DNA of 45,057 bases, filler included, from Jimgerdemannia flammicorona (lineage: Eukaryota): the NCBI GenBank assembly GCA_003990765.1. It is 2 parts of 2 records of this genome, joined end to end, with 100 filler letters (N's around TTAATTAATTAA, not from the genome) between each part and the next. Parts side by side here need not be neighbours in the genome. Positions count along the whole stretch, not along the records: positions 1 to 22,480 come from RBNJ01001270.1; 1 more part is not named here. One strand, written 5' to 3'. The notes under the pieces are model-generated. The model was not told the origin of the DNA. It made no database searches and saw only the letters and a list, made by a program, of their open reading frames with translations. Positions within the stretch are counted from its first letter, which is position 1. The number at the start of each line of letters is the position of its first letter. This document shows, piece by piece, positions 724-44,804 of the stretch. The translations under genes and the position numbers were made by a program.

Positions 724-835
724 AATTATGCACAGGAAACAAAATTTGGTGGCGACAGCAACATCCCCACCAATCTTATCCCAGCACCTCGCCATCACCA
801 TCGATATACCAAGATGTCTGTTCACAAATAACCAA

Positions 836-1981
836 TTACGCCAAGTCAGTGTCACCTTCGGCGCGACCATCTGCAGAAACTTGTAGACTTCCTCGTAGAC
901 CGTGAATGCGGGGGGGGAAATGATAATAGCGTGGCGGGAAAAATCGTTGTTTGCCTCTCGGTAAATGAAATCACGGCCATAAACTAGCTTGCCTCAACTT
1001 ACAATCAACCTGGCCAATCTCGGCGTGGCGCCTTTCCAAAGCGCGAGCACGCCATCCTTCCTCGAGACCTTTACCACGCAATCAAAGCTATTCTTATACA
1101 ATTTTTGGCGTCGAGCGCCTGCATCTTTGTCTTGATGACATTGAGGGGGCATAGTGGTATACGCGGTGACGATGCCTGCCACGCCGCCGACAGCGAAGGC
1201 AGCCCATGATGGGAGCGGGTCGTCCGGCCTTGCGCGGAGGTGCTGCACCTGAGTCTTGAGAGCGCATCATGACGGAGAACAGGCCCCGGTAGATTCCGCC
1301 TAAGCCTTCAGCACGGACAATAGCCGTGCTATTTAAGGTTCGGCGTGTATTAGTTTGGTTCTGGTGTCGAGTGGGAGCCGTTGGGTGATCGCTATCGGGG
1401 AAATAGTCTTCACACTTGCTCTCGACCATAAACTCCAAACTTACTTTGTCGTCTCTGGCGGCGTGACAATCAGCGTAGCCTCCGTCATATCCGCTCCTAA
1501 CCACCCAAGCACGCTCCTCGTGCCGATGAGCTTGCCGTAGTCGTCGCGGAGGGCCTGTGCGAATTTGTCGTAGGCAAGGAAGCGGATGGCAATGGCGAGG
1601 GCGGACACGTCGCAGTGGAGGGCGAAGATTCCCAGGGTGCGGACGGTGTGTGAGGAGGTCGATCGGGCCTTTGAAGCGCGGCTGGAGGGTTGGGGGGTGA
1701 AAGAAGTTAATTGCGCTTGCGAAGGTCAGATTCCTATATTATAAATGGGGATAATATTGGCGCCTTACCGCCTGTACAGCAGCCAACTTGTCTCCTTCCA
1801 GCTGTAACATCGTCTTGATGTACTCGGTCAGGTAGGTTAGGCGTCGTCCACTCCACAAGAAGGCGGGGTTCTTCTTGTCCTTCGTCTGCAGGTTATGACG
1901 AAACAAGTTTCAACAGACTGGAAGCGTCTTGAGAGGATCAGATGCGAAGGCACCAAGACGAGTCATAACCTTGTCAGACAT
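836..1981 (-). pseudogene. CTP1: Mitochondrial citrate carrier pseudogene (copy D)
   Basis: Collinear with the intact gene at 18633-20000 including introns. Multiple internal deletions and frameshifts; fragments such as ALWKGATPRLARLI are retained. Confidence 0.9.
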
Positions 1982-2351
1982 GTTCAGTAGGCCGCTCAAG
2001 GTGGTATGGACGAGAGGGGGATGAAGAGAGTAGTGTGTCCTGGTGGTTTGATTGCTCGTCGGAGAGTTTTATCTAATCATCAGTCACAATGCACCGTAAA
2101 ACCATATATCAAATTCCCAGGCAACCCAAATGTTCCAAAATTAATCATAAAAGTTTGGACAATACATAACTTCGCACCAATAACATATAATATATACTGA
2201 AGATGACATAAGAGTGACATAGGGCATATTTTAACTTAATGTCAGGAACTTAATGTAAACGAGTGCTGATGGGTGTTCTGATGTACGGATAGGTCATAAA
2301 TACTGGTGGGTTTACGTATTGGCTCAATTCTAGAAAAAAGCGGTAACTAAA

Positions 2352-3167
2352 TCACATATCCAACCCAAAAAAATACATTGGAGTGCTGCTTGTCACAAGT
2401 AAATGAGTTTCGCTGGGGTAGTCTGTGCCATATCCCTCCAATTGAAATTCCGAAATTTGAGGTGGCAGCACGTTTTCCTGGATACTCATCGGATAGTTTT
2501 CCTGGAGGCGGGAGTCGTTAAGGGTTGTGACGTCCACTGCAGGGGCGAGGTCGGTTTCGTCAAAGTTAACGAGGTCGTCAAGTTCATACAGTGTCTGGAT
2601 GATAGTAGTGTTGTTCTCCGCAGAAAATTGGTTGCACATATACTCGGTAGCTGTGTGATAGTTATCCTTCGAGAAACAAGGTTCGCTACGCTTACCACAA
2701 CGATGGCAAGGAGCGCCCGAGCATCGCTTTTTGTGCAAATGGCATTTGGCGCACGCCGTTCCCGGTGCCTTTCTCTTGGATTTATTTATGCAGGCGTGAA
2801 GGTGGCATCGCTTTTTTCTTTTCGAACAATCAGCGCATTGCTTGTACGGGGTGTACGCCGGCGACTGTTGTGGCATGGGGTTGGTGCTAGATAGGTGCGG
2901 CGAAGAATCTTGATTGTCAACGAACGCATCCAAAATGTTTTGCGAAGGATTTGAGGTGTTTCTTTCGATTTCGCCGACGATCGGGGGTCCACTGGCGTGG
3001 GTTTCTGTCCATAGGTGAGCCAGGAGATGATCCATGAGGTTGAAGATCAATGAGCAATTTGGATAGGGGCAGCGGAGATAAGAGACGTTTGGATGGATTT
3101 GGTTTTGAATCAGAAAACGTGACTGAAGGCGTTGAGGAGGCCTTGGAAAAATGGGTCGGTAAGTCAT
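2352..3167 (-). CDS. Intronless zinc-finger transcription factor, 271 aa: C2H2 finger + CxxCx6CxxH module + Zn2Cys6-like cluster
   Basis: CPYPNCSLIFNLMDHLLAHLWTETH (C2H2), CADCSKRKKRCHLH, ACAKCHLHKKRCSGAPCHRCGKRSEPC, acidic C-terminus. TATA-like TATAAA about 50 bp upstream. Confidence 0.85.
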   Translation of the reverse strand: MTYRPIFPRPPQRLQSRFLIQNQIHPNVSYLRCPYPNCSLIFNLMDHLLAHLWTETHASGPPIVGEIERNTSNPSQNILDAFVDNQDSSPHLSSTNPMPQQSPAYTPYKQCADCSKRKKRCHLHACINKSKRKAPGTACAKCHLHKKRCSGAPCHRCGKRSEPCFSKDNYHTATEYMCNQFSAENNTTIIQTLYELDDLVNFDETDLAPAVDVTTLNDSRLQENYPMSIQENVLPPQISEFQLEGYGTDYPSETHLLVTSSTPMYFFGLDM

Positions 3168-3347
3168 TTTTATGATTTGTTCTTGTTCGTGCTTTTGGAA
3201 TGTGGCAACATGGTTACTTTATACATGGTCGAGTGATTTGAATTTCGAATTTTTGCCGCTTTATTCTTATTCCCACCCTCATGCTGTGTTCGATTCGTTC
3301 AACCCTGTATCACGGCAATTGTATTGGCTAATGCTTTAAACCCTCGC

Positions 3348-3408
3348 CGGAACCGCACAACTTCAACGTAATGAAGAATCGATGCGATGATATAACGTGA
3401 CGGTCCCG
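3348..3408. promoter_or_regulatory. Two CGG-N2-CCG inverted triplets upstream of the zinc TF; candidate zinc-cluster binding sites next to a CCAAT box
   Basis: CGGAACCG at 3348-3355 and CGGTCCCG at 3401-3408; ATTGG at about 3323. The motif recurs upstream of every TF copy. Confidence 0.4.
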
Positions 3409-4590: not shown

Positions 4591-5515
4591 GATTTTTTCA
4601 TGTTTTTGAAATGTGGTGACACCGGTTCCTTTTATACATAGTTCAGTTACTCGAATCTCCTCCATTTCGAATCACTTCCATACCCCTCGTCCCGCGTTCG
4701 ATTCGTTCATCGGCTAACCTCGTCGGAACCGCATAATGTGAACGGGATAGCAGTCACTCGATGGGACATCTCATCTGGGTTTTCGTATGGGACACATCAC
4801 ATCCAGATTTTCATACGGAACACATCCTATCCATCTCATCTCTCATTATATAATTATATATAAATCAAGATGCATAGAATTTAATATCTATGCAGCTGTT
4901 TTGTCGGAGAGATTTGAAAAAGCGCTCGGTTATAGGAGCGATAGGTTGTTGATTTTTTTTTTTTTTTTTTTTATAGGTTGCTTGATTACTGTTAGACGAT
5001 TAGGAAAGACGAAATACTAACATGTGCACAGCAAAATCTGTTTTCCGAATGTTGCGGCGGAGTTAAACCAAGACGGTTTGAGATTATCATGTGAAAATAC
5101 TATCAGACGGTCGTTGGGAATAAGATTTTATTTTCGAAGGTGCTTATATGACGTTTTATCTGTGGATCCAGAGAAAATTGGCACCGACCTGCATGCTTGA
5201 GTACGGAAAGGTTGGCCGAGTAGTACGCCAAAAAAGGGTTCAGGCCAATAATCACGTAATCTACTGATCAGGTCGTCCCCCTCATGTCAATTATATAACA
5301 TGTTATTTTATTACTATTTAAGAGTACACCGTGACTGATCTGTTCGCGTCGGAGGGTGGGTGTATCAAAGCATATTTTTGTATGTATCAAAAAAAGACAA
5401 ATAAAATGCTATGATGCATGTCCAAGACCTAGTGATGACAGCAACATCCTCCAACCTCATCCCAGTACGTCGCCATAATTACCGATATATCAAGAGCCTG
5501 TCCGCAACCAACCCA

Positions 5516-6615
5516 TTATGCCAAGTCAGCGTCTATCCTTGCCACCTTCGGCACGACCATCTGAAGGAATTTGTAGACTTCCTCGAGACTGTGAAGGCGA
5601 TACCGCCGGAGGACTATAATGAGAAGAGAGTTTGTAAGTACGGAGAAAAAAAAATACGATAATAGTGTGGGGGAAAAATATTGTGTCCCTCCCAGCAAAT
5701 GAAATAAAGCTTCCCATCATCGTCCAAGTCACAGACGAGCCCGCCTCAACTTACAATCAACCTGGCCAATCTCGGCCCGACGCCCCCTTTCTCGCGACCT
5801 TTATCACGCAATCAAAGCTATTCTTGTACAAATTTTAGCGTCGACCGCCTGAATCTTTGTCTTGACGACGTCGAGAGACAGTGGTATACACGGTGACGAT
5901 ACCAACAGCGAAGGCAGCCCAGGATCGTCCGGCCTTGCGCGGGGGCGCGGTGCCTTTGTCTTGAAGGTGGAGTAGACAAAAAAGCGGACGGCGGAGTTGG
6001 TATCCTGGCGTATCATGACGGGGGGCCGCGATATTGAAAATAGTCCTCACACTTTCGACACCCACTCCAACACGGCGCTCGACCATAACCTCCACACTCA
6101 CTTTATTGTCTCTGACGGCGTGACAATCAGTGCAACCTCCGTCATACCCGCTCCTAACGCCACAAGCACGCTTCTCGCGTCGCTGAGCTTGCCCTGGTCG
6201 TCGCAGAGGGCCTGTGCGAATTGGTCGTAGGCAAGGAAGCGGACGGCGCTCTTCCAATGACGAAGGCGGACATGCCACGGTAGATGGCGAAGATTTCCTG
6301 AGTGCGGACGGTGTGCGTGAGGTGGCCGATCGGGCGGCTGAGGTTCGGGGTGGAAGTAAGTTAGGTGCACTTGCAAAGGTCAGGTTTCTATGACATAATG
6401 GGATATAATCGATGCCTTGCCGCCAGTACGATGGCCAGCTTGTTTCTTTACAGCTGCAACCTCTTTTTGTATTCGGTAAGGTAGGTTATGGCGCCCTCCA
6501 CGCCGCCAGTGATGAGAGATAAGGTAGAGTTCTTCTTATCGTCCTTCGTCTGCGGTTACGACGAACAACAGACTGGAAGCTTTCTTGAGAGGGACAGATG
6601 CAAAGGGTCATAACC
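5516..6615 (-). pseudogene. CTP1: Mitochondrial citrate carrier pseudogene (copy C)
   Basis: Collinear with 18633-20000. The start-codon exon is deleted and there are several internal deletions and frameshifts. Confidence 0.9.
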
Positions 6616-6884
6616 TGTTCAGTGAGACTGTACGCAGAGTGACTTGATTGATCGACGGAGAGTTTATTCAATAACCAGTGTAATTACCGAAATAAATTAA
6701 ATGTCATAAAAGATTGGACATCGAACCAAATAAACTTGATATAACATATGCTGAAGATGGCATATTAAAAATAATAGAAAATCTATAAGAGTGGCATAGG
6801 GCATATTTTAGCTTGGTGCCAGGAACTCAACGTAGTCGAGTGCTGATAGTGGGTTTGCATTTGCTCAATTACAAAATAGCAGGA

Positions 6885-7490
6885 ATATCCAAAAAAATAC
6901 ATCGGAGTGCTACACATCCCTCCAATAGAAATTCCGAAATTTGAGCGGCACGTTTTCCTGGAAGCGGGAGTTAAGGGTTGTGACGTCCACTACAGGGGTC
7001 GGTTTCGTCAAATTTGACTAGGTCGTCAAGTCCATACACTATTTGGATGATAGTGTTATTGTCCTCCGCAGAAAATTTTTGCACAGATGCTCGGTAGCCG
7101 TATGATGGTTATCCTTCAAGAAACAAGGTTTGCCACGTCTGCCACAGCGATAACAAGGAACTCCCGAGCATCACTTTTCGTTCAAATGGCATTTGCAACA
7201 CGCCGTTCCGGGTGTTTTCCTCTTGGATTTGTTTAATAAAGCATGAAGGCATCGCTTCTTTCTTTTCGAACAATCAGCGCACTGCTTGTACGGGGTGTAT
7301 TCCGACAACTGTTGTGGCATGGGGTTGGTGCTGGATAGATGCGACGAAGAACCTTCGATTTTGCCGACGGTCAGGGGTCCACTGACGTAGTTTTCCGTGC
7401 CAGGAGAGTCCATGAGGCTGAAGATTATTGGGCAATTTGGGTGCAGCGGAGGTAAGAGATTTTGGAGAATGTGACTGGAGATCTTTTTAT
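6885..7490 (-). pseudogene. Zinc TF pseudogene (copy B)
   Basis: YKQCADCSKRKKRCLH and TACCKCHLNEK followed by a premature TGA (CGA in intact copies). N-terminus largely deleted. Confidence 0.85.
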
Positions 7491-8159
7491 ACATGGTCGA
7501 GTGATTCGAATTCTGCCATTTTATCTTATCCCCACCCTCATTCTGTATTCGATTCGTTAGACCTTGTATCGCGGCAATTGTATTGGCTAATACATTAAAC
7601 CCTCGCCGGAACCGCACAACTCCCAACGTAATTGAAAGGATTGACGTGATGATAACTCCGAACGGACTATACACTATAGCCGGTTCGGAAATTGGTACTT
7701 GTTGACGCCGGATCGGCCCCCCCCCTTTTTTTTGGACAAAGTACGAGGCTTGTGTGCTTATTTCCGGGTTGTGTATACATGTTTCTGAGGTGCGCCATTA
7801 TCGCGCGAATTTTATGACCACGTGCCATTTTACCCGTAAGGGCAGTATAGTCTGAAAAATTCGAAAGTGAGAGTTCGCAGCGAAAGTGACATTCCAGGTT
7901 GTATATATATACATATTTTAAAATCTGTTTTCCGCACACTATCAGCACCACAATGCACTATGTTACGGCGCCAAAATGTTCGGAAAGGAGTCAAACCAGG
8001 ACAGTGTGTGATTGTAAAGGACAATACGATTCGTTGGGAATTAGAGTCGCCAATGGCGTGATCCAGAAAAAATCAATTAAAAGTTCTGGCTGAGTAGTAT
8101 CACCTGTGCCAACAATCCGAATCTGACGTCACCAATTTGTTTTCGCGGCAACATCGCCA

Positions 8160-8287
8160 GTATCTTAGTTGGGAATACGGAGTGGAGGAGAAGAGGAGCG
8201 TTGTTTATTATTCCAGATAGCGCGTCGAGTGACGTAACTCAAAGATGACGTAGTTACATATAAGCCACATTATCGAGATGTAATACA
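8160..8287 (-). repeat. 3' LTR of the copia element (CpG-intact)
   Basis: Direct repeat of 15860-15996; adjacent to the PPT; inner end reads TG on the minus strand. Confidence 0.92.
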
Positions 8288-8822
8288 ATACTCCCGCTCA
8301 ACGAGATAATATGCAATGTAAGCAGGAATGTAATGTAACCAAGCAATAACTGCAAAATGACTGTGAATGTACTAAAAGAATGCTATCTACACATGCTTAA
8401 AACATAAGAAACTATAGTGAAAATGAAGAATGTAGATTGGTCCCAATAGTAGAAAATCTCAAATATAGAAGAAGAAAAAGAAGAAAAATTTAATATAATG
8501 CTTGAAGAGAGAGATATATATTGCAGCTTCCTTTTCATTATCAAATATCTTGTGATTACTCATTGCTGGCATATAGTTCTATTGCTGGTATATAGTTTAC
8601 TATAAGACTTATTTTTTTAGTATATTGCTTAAATTTAGATCTCAAAAGAGCTTTGATAAGTGAATCTGCAATAATATACTCTATGGGAATGTATTTTAAG
8701 TATATAGTTTTATTTTCTATATATTCCCTTATATAATAGTGTTGTATATCAATATGTTTGGTTCTGCTATAATGAATAGAGTTCTTTGCTATAGTAATTA
8801 TAAACTAGTTATCCTAATGAAT

Positions 8823-9342
8823 ATATGTATATCATAGTAGTCTGCCCTGGGGTGGAAGGTTATTGGCAGACCTTGGAGGAACATTGGGGCTCTGAATGAG
8901 GGCAGCCAGGGGATTCCATCAGTATAGTTGCCAGAAGAAAACTGGTGGGAGATATTGGTGATGTGTGGGGTAGTATTGGGCAGATCTTAGGAGTATAGAT
9001 CTTGATAGTATCACACTAGCAGTAGGTCTTTGAGAGTGAAAGCTGGATGGAAATTGGGAATTTGATAGAGCATTGACATTGACTTGTGAGAGAGATAGTG
9101 CAGGAGTGATGGTATCAGAGGAGGTGGCAAGAGGTGGGGATAGTGAAGAAGGTACAAGATATTGTCTTAGAGAATCAGAGTCATTTGGTGCTAGATAAGA
9201 CTAGAATGCAGTGAAAAATTGAGATAAGTTGATAGGTTCTACTAGGTTCAGTAAGTCCTTTGGATATAGTGTGAGTGGTCAAGAGAACTTGTATATTATT
9301 TACTATTCTTATAAACTGGTTAGAATAAAAGAGTCCAAGTGA

Positions 9343-9373
<31 letters not shown>
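8823..9373 (+). mobile_element. 5'-truncated poly(A)-tailed non-LTR retroelement inserted in the copia RNase H
   Basis: 16-bp TSD AGTTATCC(T/A)AATGAAT at 8807-8822 and 9374-9389. AATAAA signal then about 30 A. G-rich body distinct from the flanks. Confidence 0.85.
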
Positions 9374-9377
<4 letters not shown>

Positions 9378-11218
9378 ATCCAAATGAATTGATATAGAGT
9401 ACTATTCCTGATTAAAGCTAAGTTCTTTTAACAGTTAGCATAACCAAATGGCTTCCTTTATTTCTGTAGATAATACTTAATATATACTCTAGTTATATAT
9501 ATAAATAATATTATTACTAAACTCTACTTATGTATTTGCCAGAATATAATCTCTTTATTATTTAATTAAAAGAGATACTCAGTTATAGATTAGTAATTAT
9601 CTAAGTCTTTAGTCCAATCAGCATCACATATATCATATAGATATGTTGTTGTCCTTATCATTATTACCATTGCTCTTACTTAATCTATTAAGAGTAAGTA
9701 TATATGCAGTATACTATTTTCTTGAAGTATTTGAATATATACTTAACTACTGACTAATATATATTATTATAATATAATAAATACTATATTATCTTATTCA
9801 TAATATATAAGATGTCAGATCTTATTTTTAGCATAAGATATATAATAGACTCACTGTTTACTAATAGAGAATATTAGTATAGTTTTTATTATTATTGGTC
9901 TTAAGCTTTCTTAACTTCACTAATGTTTCTATAGAAATACTAACAGACTTATATTTACTCATATTAAAGTATTTAAAAATAGCTTAGATATATATTGACT
10001 GTGAGAGATATATAGTATATATATATACTCTTATTATATATAATAGATATCTTTAAAAGAAAAAATGTATTACCTATGTCTATTATTTTAAATTCTTTAA
10101 ATAGAGCTTTTTTTTGACTTTATTAAACTTACTTTTTATTATAATAATAATAATATCATCTATTTGTATATATATAAATATCACTCTATTGGTATAGTAT
10201 TGAATATATATATAGTTATCTGCTTTATAGTATATGAAACTATTGTTAAGAAGATATTTATTAATTTCTCTATTTTACAAATAGATTACTTGCTTGATAC
10301 TATATAATCCTTTGTATAATTTACATACTAGATCATTATTTTACTCATATTCTTATAGCTGGTAAATATATAACTCTCTGTCTTTATATCTATCTAATAG
10401 ATTTCCAGATTATGTATGGTACTGATTGCAAGAAGTATTCTTAGTAAAGTAAGCTTGAATACTGATAAAAATATCTTATTATAATTTATACTATAATTTT
10501 ATAAATAACCCTTAGTAATAAAATAAGCTTTATATATATTATTCTATACTTCTATTATACTTATACTTAATTTTGTAAACTCAATATAATTTTATAGCTT
10601 GTTAATTAATTAGAAGAAGTATCAGATCTATATACTATTCTTGATAAGTAAATTATACTCTTTATCTATAATATATTACTATTTTTTATTATATATCAGA
10701 AGATATTATTACTTTATTATATATATATTTGGCTTATTAGAAGTTATAATAAATATATATTTATATATATATCTCAGCATAACTCATATAGTCTTTATAT
10801 TACTATTTAGAGTTTGCTAGTATATCTTAATAATTTTCTAAATTAGAATAAGTCTCATTTCTGAGCTTATACTTTAACTTTTCCTTACTCTTAATAGACT
10901 TTTTATTATTATTATTAGTTTTACTATCTTTAATCTCTATTATTCTTGACTTAGATAACTCTAGCTTAGATATATAGAGTGATTGAAAATAATTTTACTT
11001 TATTAAAGAGGTTGGTATTAGATATTATATTTATATTGACTGAGATATAAATGTTAAAGTAGATATTAAAGTAGATATTGAAGTAGAGATTTCAATAGAT
11101 ACATTTATATAAGGTTTTTGATTCTCTTTTTTATTAAACTATATATCATATAAGATTACTATATGATGTTTACATAGATCTTAAAGTTGATATATAAATC
11201 CATAAGCTATCTCTTATG

Positions 11219-11433
11219 TTAATTTGTAAATAAATTTATCTGTAAAAAAAAATTAAATTAAAAGAACTTTTTATTAAAAATTTTATATCAAATATTATGT
11301 CAAAAAATATTTTAAAAATATAATTTTTGAGTTTTATTAAAAAACAAATTTTAAAAATTTTAAATTAAATATTATAATAAATTTTTTTTTTAAAAATATT
11401 AAATTTTTTACAGATAAATTTACTTGTATTTAA
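11219..11433. mobile_element. AT-rich MITE-like element inside the copia
   Basis: TAAATTTATCTGTAAAAAA at 11231-11249 is the reverse complement of TTTTTTACAGATAAATTTA at 11404-11422. TTAA at both outer ends (11219-11222, 11430-11433). Confidence 0.6.
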
Positions 11434-11983
11434 TTATAATATAAGGAATATATATATATATATATATATATTTTTTTTCTCACTATCTTCTAATATTTCT
11501 ATTACTATCAAAAATATTCAGATCTTTCTCAATTAATTCACAATCATAGTGATTTAAATATATACTATTTAAACTAACTTACAAGATAATCTCTCTCTCA
11601 ATAGCTCTCTATTTGAGCTTAAGTTTCTTTAAATACATATAATATCAGTTGAGATCTTTTTGCCTAAGGTAGTAAAGCATATTTGTGTATTGGTAGACTA
11701 TAGAGCAGAGCTGGCAGTAGTTGTACTGATCTTTGTATCATTACTTGAGATACTTATTGAGATTTTAGATATAGACAATAAGGATGACAGCTTGTTCTCT
11801 ATATCTCCTATCTTTCTCTCAAAATATTCCACTGTCTTCTTCATATTCTATACCCCCATAGCTTTGGTACTTATATTCTCAAGCCTTACAATTCTCTTCA
11901 CTATATCAGTCTTTTTCCTCTCTCTCTCTACAGTAAAGTTGTTCTCATTAGTAACCAGTTTGATAATAATCAGATATATATTT

Positions 11984-14900
11984 ATAAATAGAAACTGCTT
12001 CTTTTTTTTATTTTTTTATTTTTTTATTTTATAAACTCAGAGTTCTATAGATTTTATTAGAAGAAAACCTAGACTATATAGGCCAAAACTCTCTCTCACT
12101 ATCTACTAAACATTACTCTCATTAATCTAGACTACTGAATTATTCTGCAATCTCACTATTCTCACTATATATATATCAGATATACTGACTTCTACTATAT
12201 AGACTAGACTTGTCTATTCACTAGAGCTGGATTATTATAACTATATATAAGAGTACCTATATATTAGATCTAGCAATATCAGAACTGAATAAGAAATAGC
12301 CCCCTAAACCCCAAACAAAGGTCTGAGACAAAAAAAAAACCCCTAACTAGCTAACAAAAGACAGAATAAATTTAGAGTAGGTGAGTAAAGTACTTATATA
12401 TAAGATTCCCTCATGAACTGATATATGAACTAAGGCTTAAAAAAGTCTCACTCCCACTCTCCAAGTCTGTAGACCTTAATTATATTACCATGTCAGCTCT
12501 TAGTTCCAGTTAGATATTGCCAAATGAGGGAGATCTTACTTCTCAAGTCTGCAGGCCTTGATTGTATTGCTGCATTGGCTCTCAGTTCTAGTTGGATACA
12601 GCCAAGATACTGGTCTCTATACCACCTCACTCTCTGCCAGTCAATCAAAAGGCTCTACTAAGATAATACCTACCTCAATCCTGATGACCATCACCCTACT
12701 GGTCTACTATTATTACCCTTCCACCTATCTGTAATAGCCATCTCTCCTCTCATCTCAATACTATCTAAAAAGCAGTTACTTATACTAGAACTGTACTCAC
12801 TGAGAAGCTTGCCAAAGCTCAGAGAGCCCAATCACAGGCACTAAGGACTTGCAGGTAACCTATACTGATACTTAATTCCCAAGGTTAGTTAATTCTATAT
12901 ATAGTCTATAATATACCAGATAATACCTTATTGATGATAGCAAAAGGAAGAAAGTACTACATTAAAACAAATATACTCTAGATATAGCTGAAGGTACTAG
13001 AAACTGCAAAAAAGTAGAGAAGATACTAATCTGATATTGATAAAAGAATAACTTATCACTATTGTCTTCCTTCCACCATACCCTTACAGATATAGTAAAT
13101 CAATCCAAGGTAGAGAAGGTAATAATAGAGGAAAGAGGACTCAGAAGGTTGCCTACCAAATCTTATAACTAGTAAGATAGCAGAGAAAGGGGCAGAAACT
13201 ACTCCTTCTTGGTCATAAGGAGATACTATTAGGCAGAGCCTTGGGGTGGGAGTATGGCTGAATCAGTCAGCAGAGTTAGTAAGTAAGTAAGTCAAGGAAA
13301 GTAGATGAGTCAGAGATAATGAGAGAGAGCTTAGAGGCTTGGAGAGCTATAAGAGCTGAGGTATATTTAGCAAGATTATTCTTTTTTATTTACTTAGAGT
13401 GATATTTATCAGGGCCTGAGATAATACTGTGGAAAAAGAAGATATAGAGAGGGTGGGAGACTATTGCATTAAGTAATAACCAGTGATATAGTATATTCAT
13501 TGATATTATAAGCTATATATTATTATTATTAACTATATTAGTATATACTTTGCTTATATTGTCACTTTTTACTGACTCAAAAATATATAGCTTAGATATA
13601 GATATAGATATTTTTTCTAAATACTCAGTATATATTACTTATATATAGAATATGTCTCTATCTTAATTATCATTAGTTTTGATAGTATTTGTATTATATT
13701 ACTCTTTGCTATTATATTTCTTTTCACTGCTCTCATATTACCAATACTGACTTCTATACTTATTTTCATTATTCTTCTTATTTTTATAATAGCAGTCATT
13801 CTACAATACTCATACTTATTACAGTAATGATAGTTTCTATCAAACTTGAATTCATATTTTTGATCTTATTAGTACTTCTTACCTTATTCATATAATCTGT
13901 AAAATACTTTCTCATTATCATCATTACTACTGTTTTTTTTATATATCTCTTTATTGATGAGATTTATTATTATATAGATATAATCTGTAAGTTTTCTACT
14001 TTTATATATAACTACTATTACAATATTATATGTTGCTCCTTTCTTTGCTACCTTACTGGTTACAATAATTTAGTAGGCAATCTTCTGAGTTTACTTCACA
14101 ATTATTACCCCCTCTACCTCAGGTTGGTTTGCTGTACCTATTGCAAGGTAGTGAGAGAGAGGCAATAGTGATGAGTTACCCCTTTATTGGTGTCAGATCA
14201 GTATCTTCTCCACTTTTTTACAGTTTCTAGTACCTTTGGCTACATCTGGAGTACATTCATTTTGGTGCAGTACCTTCTTCCTTTTGCTGTCACCAACAAG
14301 GTGCTGTCTCAGTATATCATAGGCTGTATAGAGAGTTAGCTGACCTTGGGCATCAAGTGCTCAGTGTAGGTTACCTGCAGATCCTCAGTATCTGTGGTGG
14401 GGCCCTCTGGCTTTGGCAAGCTTCCTGGTGAGTGCAGTTCTGGTATAGGTAACTGCTTTTTAGGTGTTGTTAAGATGGGAGAGGGATGGCTATCATAGAT
14501 AAGAGAAAGAGTAATAATAGTGAACCAGTAGGGTGCCAGGCTGGGGGTAGTCATTGGGGCTGGGGTGAGTACTGCTTCAGTGAGACCTTTTGATTGATAC
14601 AGAGCAGTTAGGTGGTAGGTGTCACTCTCAGCTTCTTTTTGTAATTCAGCAGATTGGGCCCCAGTCATTGGGGAGGGTTGGGGGGCCTGAGACTACCTAT
14701 TTCAGGTGTCTTGGCTGCACTCAACTAGAACCAGGAGCTGATATAGCAATGTAATTGAGGCCTACAGACTTGAGTAGTAGGGTATTGAGAGTCTCCTCCT
14801 ACCTCATGTATAAGTCCTTTACTTATCTTGACTTAGAGAACCAGGTCCTACCCACTATAATATACTTTGATGAGAGTTTTTCTTTATCTGTCATTCTCTT

Positions 14901-15222
14901 TGAGATGGTAGGGGCTATTCTATTCAGCTTGGACATGGCCTTGTACATATGTTGGGGTCTCAGGCATGTACTTTTGGTCATTGGCATATGGCTGGGTTCT
15001 CTCTGATGATAGAGAGAGTATAGTATACAGAATGAGGTATGGACCAACATAGGCCCTACTGTGCCTGATATAATTGAGCTACTGGACAATAGCTAGCCTA
15101 GGTTAATGGGGGAGCAGTGCTTGATAGGTGGTGGGAGAGGGGTTTGACCTATATAGTCTAGGCTCTCTTCTAATAAAAATCTGTAGGATATTGAGTTTGT
15201 TAAAAAAAAAAAAAAAAAAAAA
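11984..15222 (+). mobile_element. 3.2-kb nested insertion in copia gag made of two related poly(A)-tailed elements in head-to-head orientation
   Basis: Poly(A) at 15202-15223 and degenerate poly(T) at 12002-12030. 12030-13200 is an imperfect inverted repeat of 14030-15200. About 11-bp TSD (ATATATATTT 11974-11983 / ATTATATATTT 15223-15233). Removing it restores a gag-like frame (KDKVLVLIKDLSEIYN / LIIIKLVTNENNFTVE). Confidence 0.75.
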
Positions 15223-15859
15223 ATTATATATTTCAGAGAGATCTTTTATAAGAACCAAAACCTTGTCTTTATTGCTGATATACTCTGCTGATATACTTAG
15301 AGAATTTATTTGATTTATCAGATTATTGATATATTTGACATATTTATAGATATTTTCCTTAGACTTTATTCATAGATTGAATAATTGAGATTTCAGATAG
15401 AACTGATTCAATGAGAATGCTTTTATATGATAATTATATAGAGTCTTTCACACATTGTAGACTATTGTAGTATATATTATAAGCTTCATTTACTGATTCA
15501 ATAATATAAAGGCAATCTTTTATAATACTCAGTATTCATTTATAGTATTGTAATCTTGAATCTATACTTACAGTTTCATATACTCTACTAAGCTATACTA
15601 CTTTAGGAGATTGCTCATATAGAATACTCAAATAGCATAATCCTTATCATTAAAGATAGGAATCAACCTCTTGGCTATATTTATGCTAGCCACAGGAACT
15701 GTGACCATCATACCCATTCTGGGGATATCTGTATCTGCTGTGGCTGATACATTTGTGCTAGCTCCTTGATTCATCAGTTGTGACATCTTGATATAGAGTA
15801 GTATATACTCTTAGAGAGGTGTTTCTTACTAGCTGCTAAGCAGGGCTCATAACCTTTAT

Positions 15860-15996
15860 TGTATCTTAGTTTGGAATATGGAGTGGAGGAGAAGAGGAGC
15901 ATTGTTTATTATTCCAGATAGCACATATTTATGCATTGAGTGACATACCTCAAAGATGATGTAGTTACATATAAGCCACATTATTGAGATGTAATA
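15860..15996 (-). repeat. 5' LTR of the copia element (CpG-erased)
   Basis: Direct repeat of 8160-8287; followed on the minus strand by PBS GGTTATGAGCCC (15843-15854). Confidence 0.92.
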
Positions 15997-16118
15997 ATGA
16001 GAATTTCAATAGTATGTTTTTTTATTTTTCATCTTTGCCAGCCAATATTATATCTTTATTATCTTTAATGAGCCCAGAACGTACTTCTCTTAGCTTTTAT
16101 CCGATTTCTCCTCGCCCG

Positions 16119-16611
16119 ACACGGCTTTCGACCATAACCTCCACACTCAATTTATCGTCTCTGACGGCGTAACAATTAGCGCAGCCTCCGTCATACCCGC
16201 TCCTAACCCTGCAAGTACGATCCTCGCGCCGCTGAGTTTTCCCTGAGCGTCGCGGAGGTCCTGTGCGGCAAGGAAGCGGACGGCGCTCTTCCAATGACGA
16301 GGGCGGACAGATGAAGATTTCCTAGGTGCGGAGGAGGTCGATTGGGCGGCTGAGGTTGGGAGATGGAAGTAAGTCAAGTGCACTTGCGGAGGTCAGGTTT
16401 CTATGACATAATGGATGCCCTACCGCCTGTACGGCGGCCAGCTTGCCTCTTTACAGCTGCAACCTCGCCTTTATGTATTCGGTCGGGTAGGTTATGGCGC
16501 CCTCCACGCCACCGGCGGTGACGCCGGCAATGGGAGAGAAGGCATGGTTCTTCTTGTCCTTCATCTGCAACAGACTGAAAGCATCTTTACGAAAGGCAGT
16601 AAGTCAGACAT
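16119..16611 (-). pseudogene. CTP1: Mitochondrial citrate carrier pseudogene, 5' half only (copy B)
   Basis: GKLSGARIVLAGLGAGMTEAALIVTPSETIN is retained. Homology stops in intron 3, about 120 bp from the copia LTR. Confidence 0.88.
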
Positions 16612-16945
16612 GTTTAGTAGGCCGAGAGGGGAAGAAGAGAGTAGTGACTTGATTGATCGGAGAATTTTATCTAATCATCAATTCAAACAATAACCGACTG
16701 TGATCGCGTGATTGGGCCAGGGGTCAACCACAAATGTTCAATAAAATTAAATATCATGAGAGATTGGATAATACATACTGAAGATGACGAATTAAAAGTT
16801 ATACAAGTGGCATATGGCATATTTTAGCTTAGTGTCAGGAACTCAATGTAATTGAGTGCTGATAGATGTTCTGATGTATGGATAGATCATAAATGCTAAT
16901 GGGTTTATGCATTGGCTCAATTCTAGAAAAAAAACGGTAACTAAA

Positions 16946-17730
16946 TCACATATCTAATCCAAAAAAATACGTCGGAGTGTTGCTTGTCACAAGTAACTGA
17001 GCTTCGCTACGGTAGTCTGTGCCATATCCCTCCAATAGAAATTCCGAAATTTGGGGTGGCAACACGTTTTCCTGGATACCTATCGGATAGTTTTCCTGGA
17101 GGCGGGAGTCGTTAAGAGTTGTGGCGTCCACTGCGGTTTCGCCGGGGTTAGCGAGGTCGTCAAGTTCATATAGTGTTTGGAAGATAGTGTTGTTCCCCGC
17201 AGAAAATTGATTGCACATATACTCGGTAGCTGTATGACAGCTATCCTCCGAGAAACAAGGTTCTCCACGCTTGCCACAGCGATAGCAATGAGCGCCCGAG
17301 CATCGCTTTTTGTGCAAATGGCATTTGGCGCACGCCGTTCCCGGTGCCTTTCTCTTGGATTTGTTTATGCAGGCGTGAAGGTGGCATCGCTTTTTTCTTT
17401 TCGAACAATCAGCGCACTGCTTGTACGGGGTGTACGCCGGCGACTGTTGTGGCATGGGGTTGGTGCTGGATAGGTGCGGTAAAGAGTCTTGATTCACAGC
17501 GAAGTGTTTTGCGAATAATTTGTGTTTCTTTCGATTTCGTTGACGATCGGGGGTCCACTGGCGTGAGTTTCCGTGCAGAGGTGAACCAGGAGAGGGTCCA
17601 TGAGGCTGAAGGACGTTGGGCAATTTGGGTAGGGGCAGCGGAGGTAAGCGACGTTCGGATGAATTTGGGTTTGCATTGGAGAACGTGGCTGGAAATGTTG
17701 AGGCCTTGGAAGAATGGAGCGGTAAGTCAT
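16946..17730 (-). pseudogene. Zinc TF copy A, frameshifted
   Basis: Closely similar to 2352-3167, but a net ~10-bp deletion near 17495-17510 splits it into a 78-aa N-terminal frame (17494-17730) and a C-terminal cluster frame. Confidence 0.8.
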
Positions 17731-18632
17731 TTTGAATAGTTTGTTTTTTGAATTGTGGCGACATGGTTACTTTTATACATTCCCGCCTACATGCTGCGTT
17801 CAATTCGTTCCATCCTGTATCACGGCAATTGTATTGGCCAAGGCTTTAAACCCTCGCCGGAACCGCGCAACTTCAACGTAGTAAATAATTAATTCATCAC
17901 AGCAGTCACCAAAAACCAAATTAGTGTGACAGTATCAGACGTCGTCGGTCGTGTGATGCCTGAAACCAAGGACCTAGGCCATTTCGGGCGACTGGCTCCC
18001 CCGTCAAATTCGTCAAATCCGACAATGTATTCAGCATATAGGTCGAACCTCATATCTCTCATTCCCAACGACCGTCTGATCGTATTGGCCTATATCACAC
18101 CAAATCCCAAACTGACACTCCTCCGAATATTTTTGCGCCGCAACATAGTGCGTCGTAACAGTAGTCAAGCGATCCGCCACTGTTGTCAATATCCATCAGG
18201 TCGCGCGCCACGTTGATTACGTCAGAATCTCGCGACAAAGTATCCGACGAATACCATGTTATATGACATAGTAAACTTTTGGATAGGATTTTCATCATTA
18301 CTTAAAAGTTAAGCAGCGTACACTGCAAATCAGAATACAATTTTGCTGGTGATGGAATGCGACTGTTCTGTTCGCGTGTATACCTGATGGTAACTAGTTC
18401 GAAATGCGGGGTGACGGAACAGGTTTCAGAACGCGTCGTCTGAAGTATATTACTTATGGTCGCGAACGAAAACATATGCACAGGAAAAAAAGATTTTGTA
18501 TATACCAAAGAAAATAGATAAAATGCTATGCCCATGTACCAGAATGGCCCCAAAATTTGGTGACGAGAGTATCTCATCCTAGTACGTCGCCGTCATTATC
18601 GATATATCAAGAGCCTGTCCGCAACCAACCAA

Positions 18633-20000
18633 TTACGCCAAGTCAGCGTCTATCCTTGCCACCTTCGGCGCGACCATCTGCAGGAACTTGTAGACTTCCT
18701 CGTAGACCGTGAAGGCGATACCGCCGGAGAACTGTAGTGGGAAGGGAGTTTTATAAGTGCGGAGAAAAAATACGATAATAGTGTGGGAGGAATATCATTG
18801 TGTGTCTCCCGGCAAATGAAATAAAGCTTCTCATCATCGCCCAAGTCACGGCCACAAACGAACCCGCCTCAACTTACAATCAACCTGGCCAATCTCGGTG
18901 TGGCGCCTTTCCAAAGCGCGAGCACGCCATCCTTCCTCGCGACCTTTACCACGCAATCAAAACTATTATTGTACGAAGTTTTGGCGTCGAGCGCCTGCAT
19001 CTTTGTCTTGACGACGTCGAGGGGCATAGTGGTGTACACGGTGACGATGCCTGCCACGCCGCCGACAGCGAAGGTAGCCCATGAGGGGAGCGGGTCATCC
19101 GGCCTTGCGCGGAAGCGCTGCACCTGCGTCTTGAGGGTGGAGTAGACAGAAAAGCGGACGGCGGAGTTGGCACCCTGGCGCATCATGACGGGGAACAGGC
19201 CCCGGTAGATTCCGCCTAGGCCTTCAGCACGGACGATGGTCGTGACGCCGTGAATCAAGCCGCGATATTTGGGGTTAGGCGTGTTTTGGTCGTGGATTAG
19301 TTTAGTTCTGGTGTCAGGTGGGTTTAATACGGGTTGGTCTACGTTGATCACTATCGGGAAAATAATCCTCACACTTTCGACACCGACTACAACACGGCGC
19401 TTGAACACAATCTCCACACTCACTTTATCGTCTCTGACGGTGTGACAATCAGCGCAGCTTCCGTCATACCCGCTCCTAACCCCGCAAGCACGCTCCTCGC
19501 GCCGCTGAGCTTGCCCTGATCGTCGCGGAGGGCCTGTGCGAATTGGTCGTAGGCAAGGAAGCGGACAGCTCCTTTAATGGTGTTTCCGATGACGAGGGCG
19601 GACATGCCACGGTAGATGGCGAAGATTCCCTGGGTGCGAACGGTGTGCATGAGGAGGTCGATCGGGCCTTTGAAGCGCGGCTGGGATTGGGGGGTGGAAG
19701 CAAGTTAAGTGCACTTGCGAAGGTCAGGTTTCTAAGACATAATGGATACAACCGATGCCTTACCGCCTGCCCGGCGGCCAGCTTGCCTCCTTCCAGCTGC
19801 AACCTCGTCTTGATGTATTCGGTCGGGTAGGTCATGGCGCCTTCCACGCCACCGGCGGTGGCGCCGGCGATGAGAGAGAAGGCAGGGTTCTTCTTGCTCT
19901 TCGTCTGCGGGTTACGACGAAACACGTTTCAACAGGCTGGAAGCGTCTTGAGAGGGACAGATGCAAAGGCATCAAGACGAGTCATAACCTTGTCAGACAT
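18633..20000 (-). CDS. CTP1: Mitochondrial citrate/tricarboxylate carrier (SLC25), 312 aa, 5 exons
   Basis: Exons 20000-19989, 19904-19764, 19680-19424, 19307-18878 and 18731-18633 with GT-AG introns give an open frame. Three carrier motifs (PTEYIKTR, PSETIKTK, PLDVVKTK), plus RQGANSAVRF and KGATPRLARLIFSGGIAFTVYE typical of fungal Ctp1. Confidence 0.93.
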
Positions 20001-21254
20001 GCTCAGTGGGCCGTTCGCAAGGTGGTGGTATGGAAAAGAGGGGATGAAGAGAGTAGCGTGTCTTGGTTGTCTTAGTGACTTGAGATCCAATCCATCTCGT
20101 CGGAGAGTTTTATCCAATAGGACTTTCTCCAGGTGACTGTTGCATCAGCAAACAGCCAAATATGGGGCTCTTATGTCAGCGTAAGCGATATAACATAATG
20201 CTTGGGTGGTGCGGCGCTGCCTACAACACCCTCACAAAAAAATTCGCCATTGACAAAGACTGCATGATTCATTTTGTGCGCCTGTGATAAATTCCGCGAA
20301 CATTATTATGCGAGAGTCCTAAATAGAATCGGCCAACTCGATCGACCCATGCGGACTCCGTATTTATCCTGACTCTCGAGCATGCTTCTCTCGCTTCCCG
20401 CCTGCGCCATCTCCGCCTCAGCGAAAACGCGGCAGGTGTCTGGTCGAGGCCTGCGTTCGAGATAGACAATTCCTGGCATTGCTGGCGATAATTGCGGTCG
20501 GCTGCGGAACGTGACAAGGTGTTTATTATTTGCGCGGAGCCGAACAGGTCCAACCCACAATTGATTAATGCGTGATGCTTTGTAATAGTTGTCCGCTCGA
20601 GCTCCACCAATACTAAATAAAAATGTATGTACCGATACACGTGGATCATGGCAAAGAAGGTACTGGAAGTGATTTGCTGCGGATATCAATGTTCGCCTGC
20701 ATCCGCGGAAGAGTGTCCAGCTTTTTGCATCCGGCGATCATTAGCTTCACGTGCCTGTGCATGTGATTGATTGTCCGCCGCAAAGCCTCCTTGCTGGGCG
20801 CCTAATTCTGACGTAAGCCAACGAATTGAGTCAAAATCCTTGTCAGCAGCGTATTGGAGGAGGAAATGTTGTTCGCTATTATTCCCTTGCCATGTGGCGT
20901 TGCTTTCATACATGAGAGGAGATTTGAAAATAAAATAAACGGATGCAACTGGAAGGCGTTTGACCAACCTGCAAGATTTGGACGAAATGACAAAGCGTAT
21001 GAGGGTTGGTTTTATCTTTGAAATACTGTAAACCAGGCAACGCTCCTTTAAAAAATTCCCTCTTCAAAGAAATTTATCCAAAACATGAACGTAATACAAA
21101 AATGCCACATGCGAAATCGTGACACCCAAGGCAATATCTGTAGTAGTTTAAATATTAGAGTGACACCAATAATGTTTCAACTCTAAGTAGGGGAGGAAAA
21201 ACAATCCATATCGAGCGCCAAAGCGGTTAAGTCAATTTAATAGAAATAAACAAG

Positions 21255-22166
21255 CTAGAGGTGAGGATCGCTTGAGCCGAAGTCATCGCCGGAACTGACG
21301 TCAGGTAGAGTATAAACCTCGAGGAGCTCAACAGACCGATTGCGAATATTCTGGTTGTCATGGTATTTGAGGGCGCGGAGATTCTGTTCGACGTCATGTT
21401 CGTTGACACAACGCAAAAAGGCAAGATAAGAATCCAACCTCTTCTCGTTGACAGCAAAATCGGCAATTTTTCGGAGGTCTACCAGTGCCTTAATGATAGA
21501 CTTGTTGTCAGCGGAGGTTAACTGATTACACCGAGACTTGATGAGAGCCTCAATGTTATCACAGTTGACACAAATTTGTCGTCTTTCATTGCAGCGGTTA
21601 CAAGGTGCACCCGAGCATCGTTTTTGGTCTATTTTGCACCCAATACACGCCTTTCCCGGTGAGGCTCGTTTTTCCGTGTTGATGGCGGCGACACGGTGTA
21701 GGCGACATCGTCTCTTTCTCCTGAAGCAGTCTGGGCATTGGTTATACTGCGGAGGCTTGGGTATGAAAGCGAATGCGGTCGGCGGTTGCGGAGCGACGTT
21801 GATGACCGAAGGATTCAGGAAAGGCGGTCGACTGACAAGGTGTTCTGCGATTGTTGGCGAGGGGCCTGATAGGCTCCCAAGTATTACTCCGTCGTTTGGA
21901 GTAATGCTGTCGTTGAATGCCGGGGTTGTGAGAGCTTGTGGATTAGGTGAGTTTTCATTTTGTATGCCGCTTTTCTGTGCGATGCTGGTGTGGGCGTCTG
22001 AGATCTTATGATGTCCAAGGATGTCCAGATTACTGAAAATCGACGGACACATAGGAAAGGGACAGCGGAACAAAGGGGGGCTGAGATGAATTTGCGATGG
22101 TAGTTCTTGAGGCCTCGGCAGGATGTTTTGATAGCGCATTTCGTGCGCTCTGTTGCTTGTTTTCAT
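21255..22166 (-). CDS. Diverged paralog of the zinc TF, 303 aa, intronless
   Basis: RYQNILPRP, CPFPMCPSIFSNLDILGHHKISDAH (C2H2), CPDCFRRKRRCRLH, ACIGCKIDQKRCSGAPCNRCNERRQIC and CNQ..A.N..II..L shared with 2352-3167. Confidence 0.85.
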   Translation of the reverse strand: MKTSNRAHEMRYQNILPRPQELPSQIHLSPPLFRCPFPMCPSIFSNLDILGHHKISDAHTSIAQKSGIQNENSPNPQALTTPAFNDSITPNDGVILGSLSGPSPTIAEHLVSRPPFLNPSVINVAPQPPTAFAFIPKPPQYNQCPDCFRRKRRCRLHRVAAINTEKRASPGKACIGCKIDQKRCSGAPCNRCNERRQICVNCDNIEALIKSRCNQLTSADNKSIIKALVDLRKIADFAVNEKRLDSYLAFLRCVNEHDVEQNLRALKYHDNQNIRNRSVELLEVYTLPDVSSGDDFGSSDPHL

Positions 22167-22480
22167 TTTTCGAGAAGGGAAGTTGGGTTAACCAATTTAT
22201 TTAAAGATCTGTCATATATATGAAAAAGTGGCGGTCCCGACTGGTTGGCATTAAAATTTAAGGCGGACCCGATCACGAGATGATGGGGTAATCCAAGGGG
22301 TTTTTTGTTTACGAGCCTCCCGACTTCCGCAACCATATCCTAATTCGATCAAATGTCGACTGCGGAATTTGGTTTCTGTGACCGCGCGGTTACGCTTGAC
22401 GAAAAGCAGCTTTTGCATCGCTGGCTATCGTCGGATCGAATTGGTACGCGAAGTAACCACCTTGGGAAGATAGTGCGGGG

Positions 22481-22580
22481 NNNNNNNNNNNNNNNNNNNN
22501 NNNNNNNNNNNNNNNNNNNNNNNNTTAATTAATTAANNNNNNNNNNNNNNNNNNNNNNNNNNNNNNNNNNNNNNNNNNNN
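22481..22580. other. Assembly gap with artificial spacer
   Basis: N runs flanking TTAATTAATTAA, which gives stops in all six frames. Confidence 0.9.
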
Positions 22581-22618
<38 letters not shown>

Positions 22619-23157: not shown

Positions 23158-23191
<34 letters not shown>

Positions 23192-30946: not shown

Positions 30947-32520
30947 TTAGTACTCGTTCTCACTCTCAACGCCCTGGACATCTTTGATATTGTATTCCTC
31001 GATGACGGATTCAAATATTTCAGCTTCCTTCTCTGCGGATTCGAGATGGTCCGTGAAGTCCTTACCCTTGTGTTCTTTCCCCATCAATGTCATGACTATA
31101 ACACCGAAGAACGCAATCGCCATAAAGATAGCCTGGGTAAGGGCATAGTTTGGTATAGGCTTCTCTTTGGAGTCGAATACGAGATTCTGGTTGGAGTCAA
31201 CCACGGGAAACTTCTCACCAAGCACGGCCTCGATCTGAGCCGAAGCGGAAGATATGAGGTTTCCGATTTGGTAGCAGAGACCAGGGAAGGTTCCCCGGAA
31301 CTCGGGCGGCGAGAGCTCATTCAAATGCGCTGGGATGACGCCCCAGGCGCCCTGGACGAAGAACTGAAGCACGAATGCACCGAGCCGGAGGGAGTCCATG
31401 TTGGGCCCGAAGGCCCAGAGGGCGATAAAGCAGCCGCCGAGGATGGCACAGACGACGATGGCGCGCCGCCGGCCCCAGTGCTCCGAGTAGTAACCCACGA
31501 TAGTACCACCGAGGATGGCGCCGATGTTGTAGATGACGGCCGTGATTGTGACGTCGGCGGAGCTGTAGTGCATCTGCTTTTGGAGGAAGGCGGGGTAGAG
31601 ATCTTGGGAGCCGTGGGACATGAAGTTGAAGAAAGCCTGGAAACAGTCGAGGGAGGCGGTAATGTAAACGTGATTTGTTTAACGGCGAGCGTGCACGCCG
31701 TTTTATCGTAGCGATTTGTAAACAATTTTTTGATGCATACCATGAGGATAATGGCGTAAATAATGCGACCGTAGTAGTTTTTGAAAACCTTCTTAACTTC
31801 ATCCCAATACGTGCGACCTTCACGCTCACGAAACGCCTTCGTCCTCTCGAACGTATCAGACTCCGGCACGAAGGCACGAATGAAGATGATCAGCACAGCC
31901 GGGAAGCTCGCAACATAAAACACTACCCGCCAGGACGCTCCGATTCCCGTAACGATAGCATAGTTAAACAGCGCTGCCAAAAGATAACCTGTGGCATACC
32001 CCTGCTGCAAGATCCCCGAGAACAGACCCCTCGCCTCCGCCGGGAGGGACTCCATAGCAAGCGACGAGCCCAGTCCCCACTCGCCCCCCATAGCGACGCC
32101 GAAAAAAGCGCGCAGTACGACGAAGGTGGTCAAGTTTGGGGCGAAACCGGAGGCGAGTTCGATCGCGGAGTAAAGCAAGATGTCGACCATGAGTGGCCAC
32201 TTGCGGCCGAAGCGATCGGCCAGAGCGCCGAAGATCAGGGCGCCGACGGGACGGAGCATGAGGGTGAAGGTGATGGCGGATGTGACATCCGAGACCTCGA
32301 CGCCAAAGTCCTTGGCGATTGACGCGGCCGTCATGGAAACAATGAAGTAGTCGAAGGCATCCAGGGACCAGCCGAGGAATGCAGCCGCGAACGTGAGGCG
32401 TTGGTTTTTATCAAGCTCTTTAATAAGTTGCCAGGGACTCTTGTACTTCTTGGCCCTTATGGGGAATTGGTCGGCCATCGGCTGGGTGACGACGTCGCTG
32501 AGTTGGTCTTCAATTTCCAT
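30947..32520 (-). CDS. JEN1: MFS carboxylate/H+ symporter (SHS/Jen family), 489 aa, one intron at 31637-31740
   Basis: FLGWSLDAFDYF, LRPVGALIFGALADRFGRK, GVAMGGEWG, SGILQQGY, NFMSHGSQDLYP, FFVQGAWGVIPAHLNELSP. Confidence 0.93.
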
Positions 32521-34224: not shown

Positions 34225-34263
<39 letters not shown>

Positions 34264-36661: not shown

Positions 36662-36694
<33 letters not shown>

Positions 36695-36732
36695 AAAATT
36701 AAAAAAAAAAAAAAAAAAAAAAAATAAAAAAA

Positions 36733-36772
<40 letters not shown>

Positions 36773-36773
36773 A

Positions 36774-36809
<36 letters not shown>

Positions 36810-44752: not shown

Positions 44753-44804
<52 letters not shown>

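Follow-up and report, generated by a model that had tools for sequence, protein, structure and literature searches.

Anatomy of a nested transposon island

The window analyzed here is the whole stretch of 45,057 nucleotides from the fungus Jimgerdemannia flammicorona (NCBI GenBank assembly GCA_003990765.1; positions 1 to 22,480 come from RBNJ01001270.1), and the element in question is a block of transposon DNA at 8304-16079 in which not a single CpG dinucleotide is found. As judged from homology and repeat structure, a single copia retrotransposon of full length, lying on the minus strand, makes up this block and carries three nested poly(A)-tailed retroposons; without its insertions the copia element measures ~4.9 kb. 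An initial annotation of the region, made from the sequence alone, had labeled it a nested transposon cluster, and Pfam, tblastn and the insertion boundaries read in the DNA bear this out. The features of the island are the following:

8304-16079, no strand: CpG-free block, 7776 bp, 29.6% GC, 0 CpG against ~170-175 expected
8160-8285, minus strand: copia 3' long terminal repeat (LTR), direct repeat with 15861-15996, outside the CpG-free block, 7 CpGs
8556-8828, minus strand: copia polyprotein C-terminus (RNase H end), containing an open frame of 82 amino acids
8823-9374, plus strand: poly(A)-tailed retroposon of 552 bp, A-run at 9345-9374, ~41% GC, 0 CpG against ~17 expected
~9405-10540, minus strand: copia reverse transcriptase, ~20% GC, many in-frame stops and several frameshifts, identified by tblastn high-scoring segment pairs
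12008-13194, minus strand: retroposon copy A, T-run at its left end (poly(A) tail), 34.5% GC, 0 CpG against 34 expected
14034-15227, plus strand: retroposon copy B, A-run at 15202-15227, located in copia gag, 43.4% GC, 0 CpG against 54 expected
15223-15687, minus strand: copia gag, tblastn match to residues 10-162 of the protein P0132 (E 3.3e-11), the high-scoring segment pair stopping at 15223
15861-15996, minus strand: copia 5' LTR, direct repeat with 8160-8285, inside the block, 0 CpG

The LTRs, direct repeats of 126-136 bp per copy, enclose gag, reverse transcriptase and RNase H in copia order, the arrangement that defines Ty1/copia elements. Both Pfam matches to the coding body lie just under their cut-offs: Retrotran_gag_2 scored 23.6 bits on gag (cut-off 27, E 3.9e-5) and RVT_2 scored 30.6 bits on the reverse transcriptase (cut-off 31.6, E 3.3e-7). 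A phmmer search with 8556-10802 of the minus strand, in which stop codons were read as X (as they were in the Pfam scans), matched 12272 proteins at E<=0.001, of which 1094 reached E<=1e-10. The C-terminal part was matched by copia polyproteins at 8604-8828 in tblastn and at query residues 650-735 in phmmer, and its 82-amino-acid open frame, used as query in a separate homologue search, gave 2 matches. The pol frame is badly broken, with 57 stops in 749 codons and several frame changes by tblastn. When the whole block was read against Pfam, its plus-strand frames returned 0 families at E<=0.01, and a search of metagenome contigs with two LTR patterns gave 0 matches for each.

The nested elements interrupt the copia sequence. 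The 552-bp retroposon is flanked by a target-site duplication of 15 bp (8808-8822 and 9375-9389, 14/15 identical) and interrupts the copia pol frame between residues 1358 and 1361 of P0132, as located by tblastn. Copies A and B are an inverted pair of one ~1.2-kb family (12008-13194 versus 14034-15223) with their A/T-runs at the outer ends, and copy A has been mutated more than copy B. A search for their target-site duplications found no common 9-mer. Nor did the copia element show a target-site duplication: the 5-bp sequences next to 8160 and 15996, just outside the two LTRs, do not match, and the element may be recombinant or may have had one flank deleted.

One candidate for a trapped host gene was considered within the block and rejected as probable chance. 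At ~11615-11803 (minus strand), Pfam gives Ribosomal_S15 a score of 29 bits against a cut-off of 31 (E 1.2e-6). The match sits in very AT-rich sequence, at the expected place of the copia integrase, and is probably a low-complexity chance match. We rejected it because the copia element accounts for the DNA, the ~2.3 kb between gag and reverse transcriptase being close to the ~2.5 kb expected from P0132.

Absence of CpG from the block

The whole window contains 2417 CpGs. The longest gap between them spans 7778 bp and is bounded by the CpGs at 8302 and 16080; the runner-up spans 229 bp. With 1091 C and 1207 G in the block, composition predicts 169 CpGs overall and 174 when calculated by 200-bp bins, and a direct count finds none. 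The reverse dinucleotide, GpC, occurs 190 times (observed/expected ratio, o/e, 1.12). In 1000 shuffles of the block within 200-bp bins the CpG count averaged 174.8 (standard deviation 11.3) and never fell below 136. Sliding windows give the same picture, since every 1-kb window entirely within the block holds 0 CpG and flank windows have a CpG o/e of ~0.8-1.44.

The absence extends to stretches of balanced composition, including 14301-14700 (48-50% GC, with 22 GpC and 0 CpG against ~21 expected) and 8901-9100, which is 43% GC and yet lacks CpG. Conversely, AT-rich flank DNA at 41001-42500 (37-38% GC) keeps a CpG o/e of 0.86-1.0, and low GC alone is therefore no explanation for the gap. The initial annotation had proposed that ~7.8 kb were without CpG, that GC-balanced stretches were included and that composition could not account for it; the counts, the shuffles and the AT-rich flank uphold all three statements. 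The absence of CpG is real and is not a composition effect.

Comparison of the two long terminal repeats

The left LTR has 7 CpGs in the part that aligns with the right LTR, and the whole of 8160-8303 has 10 CpGs in 144 bp (o/e 1.56). In the right LTR all 7 of these sites are changed, 4 to TpG and 3 to CpA, with the two outcomes interleaved and with A, G or T as the base 5' of the changed CpG. The remaining differences between the two LTRs amount to 2 substitutions and one 10-bp indel. Conversion of CpG to TpG or CpA on either strand and independent of the 5' base is the mark of methylation-dependent decay, and it is found at 7/7 sites. We interpret the difference as loss from the right LTR and not as gain in the left one, because it is not believable that chance would have restored CpG at seven sites. 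Accordingly, the right LTR lost its CpGs through C-to-T change on both strands. Furthermore, since the left LTR carries CpGs, the copia family is not natively CpG-free.

Mutation spectrum inside the block

Alignment of copies A and B (642 well-aligned of 1250 aligned columns) revealed 81% identity, 102 transitions and 19 transversions. Differences between C and T in these copies were graded by context:

CpA context: C in copy B and T in copy A, 38/78 (0.49); C in copy A and T in copy B, 13/54 (0.24)
CpC context: C in copy B and T in copy A, 21/63 (0.33); C in copy A and T in copy B, 9/37 (0.24)
CpT context: C in copy B and T in copy A, 13/109 (0.12); C in copy A and T in copy B, 8/118 (0.07)

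The copia element was compared with its homologues at 83 conserved polyprotein columns (a consensus of 60% or more, from 30 or more homologues), where 48 residues are kept and 35 are different. At conserved codons we infer 26 changes of the C>T or G>A type, 4 of the opposite type and 13 transversions, with codon ties resolved toward the forward class and most changes being unique single steps. C>T is about equal to G>A in this set, which implies that both strands were hit.

Dinucleotide frequencies complement these patterns. CpT/ApG o/e is 1.4-1.67 in every sub-element versus 0.78-0.89 in the flanks, and the copia body (~20% GC) has an o/e of 0.66 for CpA, 0.88 for TpG, 0.75 for CpC, 0.46 for GpG and 1.34 for TpA. 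Decay is graded among the elements, from ~20% GC in copia to 34.5%, 41% and 43% GC in the inserts, and CpG is at zero throughout. Overall, the comparisons support a loss that is mutational and near-saturating at CpG but not restricted to CpG, with cytosines affected in the order CpG > CpA > CpC > CpT.

The involvement of both strands bears on the proposal that an AID/APOBEC-type cytidine deaminase edited retroelement cDNA before integration. All four elements are indeed retroelements, with C-to-T or G-to-A prevailing among the changes. Such editing, however, would give G-to-A on one strand only, against the near equality of C>T and G>A in copia; TpG and CpA outcomes would not be interleaved in an LTR, and editing would have altered the two LTRs of an insertion in the same way. 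To our knowledge, complete CpG specificity such as that seen in the LTR is at odds with the motifs of known deaminases. We consider this the least probable of the explanations examined.

A second proposal is that avoidance of CpG and a high AT content are native to these transposon families, which may have been acquired horizontally, and that they have changed little at this locus. Between copies A and B there are only 5 opposite CA/TG pairs of the kind that an ancestral CpG would leave in the 642 columns, and the master copy was possibly CpG-poor; horizontal transposon transfer is moreover described as frequent in Mucoromycotina (10.1101/2025.06.16.659975). Against native composition stand the CpG-rich left LTR with its seven TpG or CpA counterparts, and the stop codons and GC-to-AT bias of the pol frame, which an active element could not bear. 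An origin of this kind is quite improbable.

The dominance of transitions between copies, and of forward over reverse changes in copia, is canonical for repeat-induced point mutation (RIP). We therefore weighed a true RIP analogue, that is, a homology-triggered hypermutation of repeats that is independent of RID and strikes CpG, then CpA, CpC and CpT. Transitions dominate and both strands are affected, as it would require. RIP is usually diagnosed by TpA/ApT >= 0.89 and (CpA+TpG)/(ApC+GpT) <= 1.03. For the whole block the two indices are 1.12 and 1.10, for the reverse transcriptase-RNase H part of copia 1.16 and 0.81, and for retroposon copy B 1.32 and 1.19. The product index of the block and the substrate index of the copia core thus speak for the analogue, whereas the substrate index of the block misses the usual threshold. 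Since the standard indices ignore CpG, a pattern such as the one described here would be missed by them.

Confinement of decay to transposon DNA

The edges of the block show no CpG gradient: in 200-bp bins, 8101-8300 has 14 CpGs and 16101-16300 has 23, and the CpG o/e of the flanks is 1.07-1.10. The DNA that adjoins the block belongs to a tandem array of four two-gene units on the minus strand (773-3392, 5437-7654, 16116-17889 and 18571-22187), which are 85-89% identical where alignable. Each unit consists of a mitochondrial-carrier-like open reading frame (ORF) and a cysteine-rich ORF with CxxC repeats; the cysteine-rich copy of unit 2 ends early, and the carrier copy of unit 3 is truncated at the transposon block. 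This last copy provides the feature of the right flank:

16080-16568, minus strand: truncated carrier-like paralogue with normal CpG, homology unambiguous from ~16116 and weak from ~16076

The fragment keeps 16/19 of the CpGs conserved in its family, and the other three units keep 16/20, 16/21 and 16/18. Its lineage-specific changes (17 GC>AT, 7 AT>GC and 12 transversions) resemble those of the other three units (19/9/16, 15/3/7 and 6/6/3 in the same order of classes), and it bears several indels relative to its paralogues. These comparisons show that decay was confined to transposon DNA. The initial annotation had envisaged a near-saturating CpG mutation directed at transposons, and of this proposal the mutational nature is borne out by the 7/7 LTR sites and the targeting of transposon DNA by the 16/19 sites kept in the flank; the restriction to CpG has to be given up, CpA and CpC having been lost as well.

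The same fragment argues against an untargeted, neutral and AT-biased decay of old dead DNA. A bias from GC to AT is common in spontaneous mutation and would favor such a process. The neighboring fragment, despite its indels, nevertheless changes like its paralogues and keeps its CpGs, and in the block itself copia homology is still detectable at conserved residues while every CpG is gone. We hold neutral decay to be very improbable.

Five linked pairs of paralogues (85-89% identity over 421-2012 columns) extend the comparison. Their ratio of transitions to transversions is an ordinary 2.4-3.4 and they have 57-74% of CpG positions in common; in one example pair 77 CpG positions are common versus 36 that are not. 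Canonical RIP acts on duplicated, especially linked, DNA, and these pairs do not bear its effects. Their intact state indicates either that duplication alone is no trigger or that these duplicates are under a threshold. A RIP analogue would explain why the edges of decay match those of the transposon DNA with no leak into the flank, and the genome is reported to consist of >77% repeats (PMC10386755), so that the nested families are probably all repeated. It would leave unexplained the escape of the adjoining duplicates of 0.4-2 kb, and also the sparing of the left LTR, although both LTRs are equally repeated.

Methylation-dependent decay as the favored explanation

On balance, the pattern is probably best explained by a methylation-dependent, C-to-T decay of the transposon island that spared the flanking genes. 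This reading builds on what can be observed directly, namely how the island is put together, in which direction and sequence context its mutations run, and that they are restricted to transposon DNA. According to it, the ~4.9-kb copia element would have inserted first, the three poly(A) retroposons would have landed inside it later, and C-to-T mutation dependent on cytosine methylation of transposon chromatin would then have acted across the island. CpG would be methylated most fully, with its methylation maintained, and hence be lost to completion; CpA and CpC would be methylated less and CpT hardly at all, their loss scaling with how old the individual element is. The adjoining genes would be unmethylated and would retain their CpGs. 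We infer that the cause would be 5-methylcytosine (5mC) set by a DIM-2-like or DNMT1-type enzyme, with deamination either spontaneous or promoted by an enzyme.

We favor methylation-dependent decay because the order of contexts matches the preference reported for Dim2 in Zymoseptoria, because DIM-2-like genes are reported in Endogonales and because transposons are reported to carry CG methylation (mCG) in Rhizophagus and Gigaspora. In transposons of the ascomycete Zymoseptoria tritici, Dim2-dependent 5mC is found at CG, then at CA, then at CC and almost not at all at CT, and among the CH dinucleotides CT ranks highest in abundance and CA lowest (H being A, C or T; PMC8016269). The same order, CpG (all) > CpA > CpC > CpT, describes the loss of cytosines here, although the preference of the local enzyme may differ; confinement to transposons and the ranking of CT and CA among CH dinucleotides are likewise common to both. 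The two systems differ in that the mutations measured in Zymoseptoria were at CA, whereas CpG loss in the island is total. DIM-2-like homologues have been reported in Endogonales and Glomeromycota, and Mucorales are described as largely without 5mC (Navarro-Mendoza et al., 10.1101/2022.12.01.518749). Among Glomeromycotina, which are related Mucoromycota, mCG is bimodal and concentrated on transposons in Rhizophagus (PMC8647823) and Gigaspora (PMC13443276), and a DNMT1-related enzyme is present. Those accounts describe methylation on existing CpGs, and the parts drawn on here mention neither saturating CpG loss nor non-CpG decay.

Several points weigh against this explanation. The edges of the block are very sharp, whereas spreading heterochromatin might blur them. 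The left LTR, together with the adjoining 18 bp, keeps all 10 of its CpGs though it touches the CpG-free interior; a promoter boundary, gene conversion or a recombinant element are possible reasons for its sparing. Speculatively, an active promoter boundary might lie there, as the left LTR adjoins the upstream region of a minus-strand ORF at 7171-7797. Given that no copia target-site duplication was found, the two LTRs possibly derive from two insertions and are unusable as a clock. In an evolution experiment with Z. tritici, Dim2-dependent mutations arose at CA and not at CG, and CG abundance was unchanged by Dim2 (PMC8016269); the parallel consequently covers the preference of methylation and not the spectrum of mutation. 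Finally, a single locus underlies all of the evidence.

Relation to known mutational systems

RIP and RIP-like mutation are regarded as features of Dikarya. With RIP in Neurospora and other Pezizomycotina the island shares C-to-T changes in both strands, limits that coincide sharply with the repeat, an enrichment in TpA and many stops. It differs in that RIP in Neurospora prefers CpA (PMC8016269) and here CpG is lost first, in that RID is reported in Pezizomycotina only (10.1101/2022.12.01.518749), and in that linked duplicates of 85-89% identity beside the block are untouched. Dallaire et al. state that no RIP signatures were detected in Gigaspora or in Mucoromycotina (PMC8647823). Outside Dikarya, index-based hints of RIP-like mutation have been put forward for Zoophthora with caveats of the authors' own (PMC11105155), a suggestion that lends the RIP analogue some support. 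With these reports added to the evidence of the linked duplicates and the left LTR, we regard a true RIP analogue as unlikely.

A related and equally doubtful idea is that Endogonales own a RID-free, transposon-guided hypermutation of cytosines, perhaps directed by small RNA or by H3K9 methylation through a DIM-2-like enzyme. It is conceivable, if rather unlikely, that such a system, in function an analogue of RIP in an early-diverging fungus, would erase every CpG, and much of the CpA and CpC as well, stopping almost to the base pair at the edges of transposons and sparing linked gene duplicates. Hypermutation of transposon cytosines that precede G is also known from Pucciniomycotina, where a 5' T is required (TpCpG; PMC3318451); the CpGs changed in the LTR follow A, G or T, and CpA and CpC are affected in the island as well. 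The initial annotation had gone further and suggested an undescribed genome-defense system, a suggestion that we do not retain, as the pattern fits known kinds of process, either decay of methylated cytosine or RIP-like mutation.

So read, the process is of a known kind, and its novelty lies in the lineage and in how complete the loss is. Among the main texts accessible to our literature search, no account of CpG loss or RIP in Endogonales was found. The island, with its complete loss of CpG, its graded loss in the order CA > CC > CT and its intact flanks, suggests that cytosine methylation, and the mutation arising from it, shapes the transposons of these plant-symbiotic fungi. If the pattern is general, it would provide a testable link between the DIM-2-like enzymes of early fungi and the inactivation of transposons.

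Other features of the window

An F-box ORF in the flank matched only proteins of J. flammicorona (n=4), with at most 39% identity. The first exon of a transporter of the MFS family (31756-32520, minus strand) is 100% identical to a J. flammicorona protein, 75% identical to one of Endogone sp. and at most 65% identical to those of other Mucoromycota. These matches assign the window to J. flammicorona or a very close relative (Endogonales, Mucoromycotina) and overturn an ascomycete origin with RIP of the Onygenales/Aspergillus type, which had been considered. An open frame of 1074 codons at 33419-36643 (minus strand) is 63-67% GC, rich in P, S, T and A, and contains tandem repeats resembling TTTSTPK; its CpG o/e climbs locally to 1.44, which sets it strongly apart from the remaining window. 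Two runs of 44 N each (22481-22524 and 22537-22580, 88 N in total) interrupt the window. Intergenic runs of A or T, 30 to more than 60 nucleotides long, occur at 594-624, 22581-22617, 23161-23190, 36662-36807, 41411-41449 and 44742-44801; they are not marks of one retroposon family, because self-BLAST finds no common adjoining sequence.

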